This document shows positions 14,224-15,055 of a DNA stretch of 16,737 nucleotides, one piece after another; within the stretch, counting starts at the first letter, position 1; each line of letters starts with the position of its first letter. Position numbers and translations under genes: made by a program. The stretch lies in assembly GCF_003334385.1 (NCBI RefSeq), contig NZ_QOWN01000064.1; one strand, 5' to 3'. The notes beneath the pieces were generated by a model. That model was not told the origin of the DNA. It saw nothing but the letters and a program-made list of their open reading frames with translations, and ran no database searches. The stretch comes from Escherichia coli (GTDB taxonomy: Bacteria > Pseudomonadota > Gammaproteobacteria > Enterobacterales > Enterobacteriaceae).

Positions 14224-14697
14224 CTACTTAATGCACTGAGTACGGATATATTCCTGCGCCCCTTCCAGTTGCTTCTGCATCGTCATCAGCCGCTCTCTGA
14301 GGGTGAAATAATCCCGTGTAACGGTGTCTGCCAGTCGGGGGCCGGTTGCATTATCCACGCGGGCGGTGCCGGTGGCTTCACGCACGGGACCTGGACAGGT
14401 GGCGTTGATACGCAGGCGCTTACGACCAGCGGCAACGTCAGCGCGAAAAGTTTCATTTTCAGCTCTCGCATCAGCTAATTCCCTCGAGTATTTTGCATCG
14501 AGCGCAGCAACATCGCGCTGGCGCACCTGCATATCAGTAATGGTTGCGTTCGCCAGCTTCAGTTCACTGGCTTTGTTATCGCGCTGCGCTTTGTAGGTAA
14601 TCGCGTTATCACGGTAATGGTCTGTTGCCATCCACAGCGCTCCACAGGCCACCAGCAGAATAACGATAAACGCGGAAAGCATTCGGTTTATGTTCAC
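14224..14697 (-). CDS. Rz: Spanin inner-membrane subunit Rz (i-spanin)
   Basis: [44 protein letters not shown]...[26 protein letters not shown] is near-identical in pattern to remembered lambda Rz, with an N-terminal TM segment. The track start at 14695-14697 is GTG; an ATG at 14680-14682 is an alternative start. Confidence 0.88.
14286..14471 (-). CDS. Rz1: Spanin outer-membrane lipoprotein subunit Rz1 (o-spanin), embedded in a different frame of Rz
   Basis: [20 protein letters not shown]...[30 protein letters not shown] matches remembered lambda Rz1 (lipobox with Cys, Pro-rich segment); lies wholly within Rz. True start is either the ATG at 14471 or the ATG five codons downstream. Confidence 0.85.
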
Positions 14698-14825
14698 CCC
14701 AGCAGCCCCGACGAAGACAACATCATCCAGGCCATGGAAAGAAAAAGAGCAACCAGCATTAGTGAAAATGAAATGCCGACAATTACACAGAGGATCTTCG
14801 CCAGCGTTATGAGTTTGTCTGACAT
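14694..14825 (-). CDS. Hypothetical 43-aa single-pass membrane protein, translationally coupled to Rz
   Basis: ATG at 14823-14825 preceded by AGGGAGGA (6-nt spacer); [43 protein letters not shown], one hydrophobic helix. Stop TGA (14694-14696) overlaps the Rz GTG (GTGA). Confidence 0.5.
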
Positions 14826-14839
14826 GCTTAATCCTCCCT

Positions 14840-15022
14840 TCACGATTTCAACGCAATGACCAGTTTTGCCAGCCCATACAGCATCGGGGACACAGCAACA
14901 CCGACCGCCACCCACTTAATGGCAAAAGCCAGTGCTCTGCTGATGTCATCAGTTACAGGCGCTTTCAGTTCAAGGCCGTTTTTCATAGTCAACCTCAACA
15001 GAATTCGTTTATACTTCTCCAT
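14840..15022 (-). CDS. Hypothetical 60-aa protein with C-terminal transmembrane helix
   Basis: ATG at 15020-15022 preceded by AAGGGAGAA; [60 protein letters not shown]. Its TGA stop is immediately followed by the SD of the 43-aa gene. The track ORF extends to a GTG at 15055. Confidence 0.5.
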
Positions 15023-15055
15023 GTTCTCCCTTGCCTTATCCAAGGTCAGAAACAC

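Follow-up and report, generated by a model that had tools for sequence, protein, structure and literature searches.

Results

Two small genes lie between the endolysin and Rz genes of a lambda-like prophage

We analysed a stretch of 16,737 nucleotides (the window) of an Escherichia coli contig (NZ_QOWN01000064.1, assembly GCF_003334385.1). The right-hand third of the window holds, on the minus strand, the late genes of a lambda-like prophage. Within its lysis cassette, between the genes of the signal-arrest-release (SAR) endolysin R and of the spanin Rz, lie two small open reading frames (ORFs) of 60 and 43 amino acids, here denoted orf60 and orf43 (Table 1). A preliminary description, made from the sequence alone, had placed two ORFs of these lengths there on the minus strand, and both are present as described; position 15055, which it gave as the outer end of the unit, is the GTG of a 71-amino-acid version, the longest, of the orf60 frame. 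The genes also form the chain it had proposed, running from stop codon to Shine-Dalgarno (SD) sequence to start codon. Each small ORF ends at or inside the ribosome-binding region of the next gene: AGGGAGG follows the stop of orf60, and the stop of orf43 overlaps, in a GTGA, a GTG (14697..14695) that is a possible start of Rz. The other candidate start of Rz, ATG 14682..14680, is the choice of PGAP and lies 12 nucleotides (nt) after the orf43 stop. The description had called both SD sequences strong. That of orf43 has a 7-nt spacing to its ATG. The SD of the long orf60 start (SD1) is real, with a predicted duplex of -7.2 kcal/mol with the anti-SD, but its GGAG core stands just 3 nt from the ATG, and SD1 is predicted to be base-paired with the upstream GUGUUUCUGACCUUG in a small hairpin.

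The two genes are predicted to encode tiny single-pass inner-membrane proteins. Kyte-Doolittle analysis agreed with the single transmembrane (TM) helix claimed earlier for each, finding one hydrophobic stretch per protein, strong in orf43 (mean of the best 19-residue window, 2.89) and moderate in orf60 (1.88), the latter being near the SAR domain (1.67) and the second transmembrane domain (TMD2) of the pinholin (1.70). The AlphaFold2 model of orf60 (mean pLDDT 72) has a helix at residues 2-14, a loop at 15-24 and a helix at 25-59. Over its whole length (residues 1-60) orf60 matches PHROG 1115 (E 1.4e-42), and orf43 (residues 1-43) matches PHROG 4906 (E 2.1e-23), both families of unknown function. 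The orf60 family takes in PHROG 1115, 4493 and 3246, which are matched by the relatives in phage GER2 and at locus L163. It shares the motif Y-[KR]-[KR]-[IF]..R..M-[KN]-[NDA]-G..[EK]...[AT]-P....A.AFA[IL][KR], followed by a helix that ends in ...ALKS, as in orf60 itself, or in ...RWW, as in relatives. The family is small: a profile search of 1.84 billion proteins gave 37 representatives at 50% identity, together with two long ankyrin-like proteins that are apparently chance matches.

In orf43 the residues K4, V16, G17, S19, F20, L24, V25, S30, W33 and L36 are invariant. Its C-terminal tail (14694-14732, minus strand; S30, W33, L36, L41, G43) is conserved as well as the helix, and an S-x-A ahead of W33 fits the -3/-1 rule of signal peptidase I, cleavage at which may release a peptide of about 11 residues.

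Sequence comparison indicates that orf60 and orf43 are real genes under purifying selection. The in-frame ratio of nonsynonymous to synonymous substitution rates (dN/dS) between divergent members is 0.14-0.29 for orf60 and 0.17-0.50 for orf43; in the other two frames it is mostly at least 0.6, and up to about 10, with one closely related orf60 pair at 0.32 in frame 1. Variable sites fall on the three codon positions as 18/14/38 in orf60 and 16/13/24 in orf43. Members from Escherichia, Salmonella, Citrobacter and Cronobacter share the reading frames and the starts. Some decay is seen as well, a frameshift in the C-terminal half of orf43 being present in 8 of 228 copies from related loci.

Of 5426 complete E. 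coli genomes, 1788 have a match to the 362-nt unit, and in 1038 of these the match covers at least 80% of the unit. Apart from Escherichia, only Shigella, Salmonella, Citrobacter and Cronobacter have homologues. Relatives of orf43 occur in 276 phage records, mostly of Shiga toxin (Stx)-converting phages. Both proteins are already in databases as hypothetical proteins, annotated by RefSeq/PGAP in relatives from many genomes (WP_021566721.1 and WP_001280932.1). The preliminary description had recognised neither, and our searches of Pfam, NCBIfam, PADLOC, PDB and Rfam likewise gave no characterised homologue; in particular, PADLOC models of anti-phage defence gave no match at E <= 0.1, and no holin match was found in PHROG, Pfam or NCBIfam. 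Full-text searches found no literature on either gene. The supplements of a Ribo-seq paper on strain Sakai, whose prophage Sp5 carries the orf43 homologue ECs_5707, make no mention of the neighbouring genes, as is to be expected since late genes are silent without induction. The family structure, the possible dual start, the link to a hairpin and the range of cassette contexts set out below appear to be undescribed in the searchable literature.

Table 1. Features of the late region in the window (positions of the whole stretch)
Feature	Position	Strand	Remarks
orf60, 60 amino acids	14840..15022	-	ATG 15022..15020, stop TGA 14842..14840; PHROG 1115 family
SD1 AAGGGAGAAC of the long orf60 start	15023..15032	-	from sequence
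Internal GAGG (14996..14993) and conserved ATG (14986..14984; Met13) of orf60	14984..14996	-	candidate second start, giving a 48-amino-acid isoform (14840-14986)
orf43, 43 amino acids	14694..14825	-	ATG 14825..14823, stop TGA 14696..14694; PHROG 4906 family
SD of orf43, AGGGAGG	14833..14839	-	begins on the base after the orf60 stop; 7 nt to the ATG; from sequence
Terminator-like GC hairpin with flanking A- and T-runs, between R and orf60	15056..15088	-	14-pair stem (6 G-C pairs), then GTGTTTCTGA
SAR endolysin R, 933W / rrrQ type, 177 amino acids	15179..15712	-	upstream neighbour of orf60; PHROG 7 endolysin, E 1.9e-62
Rz i-spanin	14224..14697	-	PHROG 13 Rz-like spanin, E 7.6e-73; PGAP 'lysis protein'
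Rz1 o-spanin, embedded in Rz	14286..14471	-	PHROG 3198 Rz-like spanin, E 1.3e-29
Class II holin (pinholin), phage-21-type, 3' part	16588..16737	-	cut by the window end; relatives: PGAP 'class II holin family protein'
YdfR/DUF1327-like ORF, 183 amino acids	16032-16583	-	
86-amino-acid ORF opposing the lysis genes	15826-16084	+	between the YdfR-like gene and the endolysin gene; relatives: hypothetical or DUF1823
74-amino-acid ORF downstream of Rz	13976-14200	-	PHROG 2571, function unknown
Lambda cosN sequence GGGCGGCGACCT, exact	13705-13716	-	between the 74-amino-acid ORF and the Nu1-like gene

A hairpin upstream of orf60 suggests expression within the late transcript

The terminator-like hairpin between R and orf60 is strong; it was missed in the preliminary description and is folded in the minimum-free-energy structure. 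An equivalent hairpin lies a few tens of nt upstream of the orf60-family gene in all 11 contexts compared (the window, L159, L160, L163, L244, L245, L247-L250 and L256); the stem sequences differ, with compensatory changes at 3 pairs. From the hairpin to the ORFs, a promoter scan found nothing promoter-like on the coding strand, and its yield as a whole was at chance (3 sites found, 3.0 expected). With a hairpin upstream and no promoter after it, the simplest reading is that orf60 and orf43 are expressed only by Q-modified polymerase. They would be transcribed only within the Q-antiterminated late transcript, and their translation would be chained, passing from the orf60 stop to the SD of orf43 and through orf43 to a stop that overlaps or abuts the Rz start.

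The scan did give one promoter-like site on the opposite strand, TAGTCA-18-TATACT (14986-15015, plus strand), whose RNA of about 75 nt would cover SD1 and the orf60 start. It bears on a role the preliminary description had offered for the ORFs, that of type-I-toxin-like membrane peptides. In such a type I toxin-antitoxin-like arrangement, orf60 would be the membrane toxin, and a short antisense RNA would start in its first codons and end at the hairpin, which has A- and T-runs on both sides and could terminate in either direction. The small, hydrophobic ORFs in a prophage do resemble Hok, Ldr, Ibs, TisB and ZorO in size, hydrophobicity, location and a hairpin able to end an antisense RNA, and the TATACT box is kept in close relatives. 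This box, however, coincides with conserved Lys-Tyr codons and is lost in L247 and L248, which keep the protein motif; the scan that found the site was at chance level; no Rfam family matched; and no promoter was found for the supposed toxin mRNA. Unlike those toxins, orf60 and orf43 have no supported antisense RNA gene and no promoter of their own, and are coupled to their neighbours within the late operon. We therefore regard a type I system as highly improbable.

orf60 has a candidate second start

Within orf60, Met13 is conserved across the family and is preceded by a GAGG (Table 1). GAGG or GGAGG stands 6-9 nt upstream of the internal Met in 8 of 10 contexts scored and, by eye, also in L250; the exceptions are the alleles of L247 (GAGA) and L256 (TAGG). 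The GAGG is encoded with the rare Arg codon AGG (6.3% of the Arg codons in this phage), and where the amino acids differ it arises from GTG-GAG-GCx instead. This combination of a conserved internal Met with a GAGG and a rare AGG codon before it in most relatives is the reason for considering two starts. Many gene callers in fact place the start of orf60 at Met13, producing 48-amino-acid database entries. The N-terminal extension is itself conserved at the protein level, distant relatives keeping Y-[KR]-[KR]-[IF]..R with other codons; its 12 residues, 4 basic and 1 acidic, are basic and amphipathic and form the separate first helix of the AlphaFold2 model. From these features, orf60 probably gives both a 60- and a 48-amino-acid product from two in-frame starts.

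The proposed arrangement recalls the dual-start holin/antiholin genes (lambda S107/S105, phage 21 S71/S68). There a small membrane protein of the lysis cassette has two in-frame starts, the longer product carrying extra N-terminal basic residues, and, as in orf60, its helix is of moderate hydrophobicity with many Gly, Ala and Ser residues. Unlike those holins, orf60 has one helix rather than two or three and no charged C-terminal tail, and a canonical pinholin is already present in its cassette.

Small one-helix ORFs are shuffled at the R-Rz junction

The preliminary description had held that in lambda and phage 21 R is followed directly by Rz. Such lambda-type adjacency is real in Qin of E. 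coli K-12, where the endolysin gene rrrQ overlaps the Rz homologue rzpQ. We infer from this overlap that the small ORFs are insertions into an ancestral R-Rz overlap, with the coupling chain rebuilt through them.

The synteny comparison it had suggested was run on 100 distinct R-to-Rz sequences from related loci. We labelled as A the orf60 family, as B the orf43 family, as C a 28-amino-acid ORF that ends in RWW and abuts Rz, as D and E ORFs of PHROG 6632 (such as that of H-19B, MAEKLSTWKFILIWLVFVIMASGYFIGQIRWW), and as A' a 40-amino-acid partial A. The junctions hold a combinatorial set of these small one-helix ORFs. A-B is the commonest arrangement; the others include ant-B (in Stx phages), A-C, A-B-A'-C, E-B-A'-C, D alone (H-19B) and A alone (Salmonella). 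The PHROG 6632 family replaces orf60/orf43 in some relatives. C is a truncated member of the A family, and phage GER2 carries a 50-amino-acid hybrid. In Sakai Sp5 the orf43 homologue ECs_5707 lies between the antirepressor gene and Rz. Some gene calls fuse orf43 to the C-terminal 38 residues of orf60, reflecting the B-A' junction, where the stop of orf43 and the GTG start of the partial orf60 overlap. Frameshifted copies and fused calls were noted among L104, L110 and other IMG/VR loci and the database proteins P0086, P0094, P0098 and P0114.

Such a junction could be filled with functionless or merely cis-acting ORFs, recombination leftovers whose translation carries ribosomes from R to Rz after their overlap was broken. 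An ancestral R stop overlapping the Rz start would fit this, as would the partial copies, fusions and frameshifted alleles, the narrowness of the families and the weak codon-position bias of orf43 within close relatives. Against it, dN/dS is well below 1 in the coding frame only, in distant members too, specific residues are invariant, the protein motif is kept with other codons in distant relatives, and the same proteins are retained in unrelated contexts without a following Rz (see below). We consider it improbable that the ORFs lack a function as proteins.

Relatives of orf60 and orf43 occur in several kinds of lysis cassette

One or both families are found in at least six types of cassette, including the window's combination of pinholin, 933W-type SAR endolysin and Rz/Rz1. 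Other E. coli cassettes, with holin_8, holin_3_7 and a soluble GH108 endolysin, carry the A-B pair with its hairpin; the orf43 homologue there matches PHROG 4906 (E 4.4e-19), and the pair is followed by a 60-amino-acid lipoprotein (PHROG 7528) in place of Rz/Rz1, no spanin-like or Rz/Rz1-like ORF having been found in the GH108 cassette. A relative of orf60 follows an M15 peptidase endolysin, again with holin_8 and holin_3_7, and precedes the same lipoprotein. In Salmonella, where the holin belongs to PF16080, A has Rz on one side and a SAR lysozyme from one of two families on the other. In L247, a metagenomic phage, orf60-like and PHROG-6632-like ORFs flank a holin: upstream of the SAR endolysin stand two A-like ORFs, the holin (PHROG 920), a further one-helix ORF and one D/E-like ORF. 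In L250 an A-like ORF comes directly after a phage-21-like holin. Further relatives of A are found behind tail-fibre assembly genes and, at a prophage end, behind a SASA esterase. The tie to lysis cassettes is strong but not exclusive, and it is specific neither to SAR endolysins nor to a single type of holin.

Prophages L251-L254, which have an orf43 homologue and were named Cronobacter by a source, carry LT-II-like AB5 enterotoxin genes (Pfam Enterotoxin_a, LT-IIB; 221-1359) just upstream of the holin, the position of stx in Stx phages.

This spread disfavours another role suggested in the preliminary description, that of SAR-endolysin release modulator. The orf60-orf43 pair follows the GH108 endolysin and an orf60 relative the M15 peptidase, neither enzyme having a SAR domain, and other relatives lie by tail-fibre genes; we rejected a SAR-endolysin-specific modulator as the leading explanation. 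A known case is the releasin gp25 of phage Mu (DUF2730, PF10805), a membrane protein with one helix that is encoded close to a SAR endolysin and has an effect on the endolysin step (PMC9239132). That protein has 99 amino acids, with a 73-residue acidic cytoplasmic domain, as against 60 and 43 for orf60 and orf43, which gave no significant Pfam match, PF10805 included.

The lipoprotein of PHROG 7528 (L256 3140-3322, L244 2649-2831, L252 3140-3322) directly follows an orf43-family or orf60-family gene in the GH108/M15 cassettes. It has the lipobox L-V-G-C and a mature part of about 30 residues with three Cys, a size resembling that of mature colicin-release and entericidin-type lytic lipoproteins. 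It may therefore be a spanin substitute.

In a further reading, the orf43 family is an accessory of the outer-membrane step and works with whichever envelope gene comes next, Rz/Rz1 or the lipoprotein, for example as a partner in the inner membrane or by regulating the final lysis step. The orf43 family directly precedes Rz in the window and in Stx phages, and the lipoprotein in the GH108 cassettes that have no Rz/Rz1-like ORF; its stop overlaps or abuts the next start each time; and the short orf43 tail (W..L..SGL.G) is conserved as much as the helix. We nevertheless judge such a role quite unlikely: orf43 is much too small to reach across the periplasm, shows no significant similarity to the TM domains of spanins and no spanin PHROG match, and in some junctions is followed by another small ORF rather than Rz, while Rz/Rz1 of lambda needs no small partner. 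Nor do orf60 and orf43 resemble spanins themselves, being too short and having neither a lipobox nor a match to a spanin PHROG, with Rz and Rz1 separately present. We also rejected the idea that they are remnants of the N-terminal TM segment of Rz, to which neither shows significant similarity.

The contexts outside lysis cassettes raise the question of cargo. The proteins could be late membrane cargo unrelated to lysis, placed in a permissive late-operon site, that for instance blocks DNA injection by superinfecting phages or hides a receptor on cell debris to which progeny would otherwise be lost. An antirepressor gene, too, is found at the R-Rz junction, a hot spot of insertion. Like mobile cassettes, the modules are shuffled and duplicated, and they show no holin-type or endolysin-type specificity; orf60 relatives stand behind tail-fibre genes and the esterase, and in the GH108/M15 cassettes the small ORFs adjoin the uncharacterised PHROG 7528 lipoprotein, a kind of protein to which some phage exclusion factors belong. 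As small envelope proteins of mosaic distribution between conserved late genes, orf60 and orf43 are also like the lambdoid morons bor, lom and HK97 gp15. Classic morons, however, are expressed in the lysogen from a promoter of their own and are followed by a terminator. The hairpin of orf60 and orf43, by contrast, precedes the genes, with no coding-strand promoter-like site between it and the ORFs; PADLOC gave no match; and most contexts, distant metagenomic ones included, are lysis cassettes with translational coupling to lysis genes. Holin genes adjacent to tail-fibre genes exist as well (T4 t, T7 17.5), which makes the tail-fibre context compatible with lysis. Cargo unrelated to lysis is in our view rather unlikely.

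Neighbouring genes of the late region

Upstream of orf60, the N-terminal segment of R, GLSAAILALITAGASA, is of weak hydrophobicity, and PGAP names R in relatives 'lysozyme'. The YdfR/DUF1327-like ORF is longer in the window than in relatives (about 103-170 amino acids), and its C-terminal half looks mosaic, matching several different PHROGs; in the closest genome (L001) PGAP marks a partial pseudogene at this position. Its 3' end is overlapped by the 86-amino-acid ORF on the plus strand.

Downstream of Rz, the ORF of PHROG 2571 is kept also 3' of the lipoprotein in GH108 cassettes (L256 3496-3720). The exact cosN sequence implies that the prophage uses lambda-type cos packaging, and beyond it follow Nu1-like and terminase A genes.

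Discussion

Our comparison points, tentatively, to a non-essential, accessory role of orf60 and orf43 in the membrane step of lysis, with expression late in the cycle and two isoforms of orf60. Among the three roles raised in the preliminary description, that of antiholin or lysis-timing factor is the most plausible. The proteins would adjust the timing or the sharpness of the holin-triggered collapse of the inner membrane, either by contacts between helices within the bilayer or by acting on the bilayer in general, the 60-residue form of orf60 carrying an extra basic amphipathic N-terminal helix that the 48-residue form from Met13 would be without. Both elements have precedents. Holin genes make effector and inhibitor from two starts, as in lambda S107/S105 and phage 21 S71/S68. 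Non-essential genes within or beside the lysis cassette shift lysis time in P2 (LysA), P1 (LydB) and T4 (RI, RIII), and lysA, like orf60 and orf43, sits between the endolysin and spanin genes. None of these proteins, however, is similar in sequence to orf60 or orf43 or is a single-helix protein of 43-60 residues; LysA has four helices, and RI acts via a periplasmic domain.

Several points weigh against this assignment. The genes are dispensable in principle, lambda, phage 21 and K-12 Qin having neither, H-19B only a PHROG-6632 ORF, and some copies being frameshifted. The pair accompanies unrelated holins (class II pinholin; holin_8 / holin_3_7), which is unexpected for a holin-specific antiholin, and orf60 relatives are also found, apart from lysis genes, where tail-fibre modules end. 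Location by itself says little, because the R-Rz junction also holds a non-lysis gene, ant, in Stx phages. As to the dual start, the internal SD is moderate (-6.3 kcal/mol), weakened in L247 and lost in L256, and the two starts are 12 codons apart, against 2-3 in known holins. The C-terminus of orf60, finally, is without the charged tail typical of holins.

Over a short stretch, the orf60 helix (14870-14917, minus strand) resembles TMD2 of the cassette's own pinholin (16588-16725, minus strand; BLASTP E 0.004 in a single comparison, shuffle p about 0.0005). The likeness extends to the W, G, S and G that do not vary within the closest orf60 subgroup, and the pattern W..VG...S is found only there. 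We rejected orf60 as a decoy of TMD2, since the match is confined to this subgroup and the gene occurs with unrelated holins too, and keep the resemblance as a lead only.

A wider proposal, which we hold to be unlikely, is that the one-helix ORFs of PHROG 1115, 4906 and 6632 form an unrecognised class of lysis component. The holin-style dual start of orf60 would then give an active and an inhibitory form that, with orf43, set the lysis clock, and hence the timing of Stx release in Stx phages with an orf43 homologue; in cassettes without Rz/Rz1, orf60, orf43 and the PHROG 7528 lipoprotein would together be a new substitute for spanins.

Phage lysis is regarded as a largely solved pathway of three steps, carried out by holin, endolysin and spanin. 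Very common lysis cassettes of E. coli and Salmonella prophages nonetheless carry conserved, selected and translationally chained mini-genes to which no role is assigned. Roughly one complete E. coli genome in three has a match to the unit, and an orf43 homologue adjoins Rz in Stx1 and Stx2 phages, for example Sakai Sp5. If the genes are ordinary cargo, the R-Rz junction is still documented as a recombination hot spot with shuffled small membrane ORFs. If orf60 and orf43 do tune lysis timing, burst size and prophage fitness would be affected and, because Stx release depends on phage-mediated lysis, so would the speed at which toxin leaves the cell in Stx phages.

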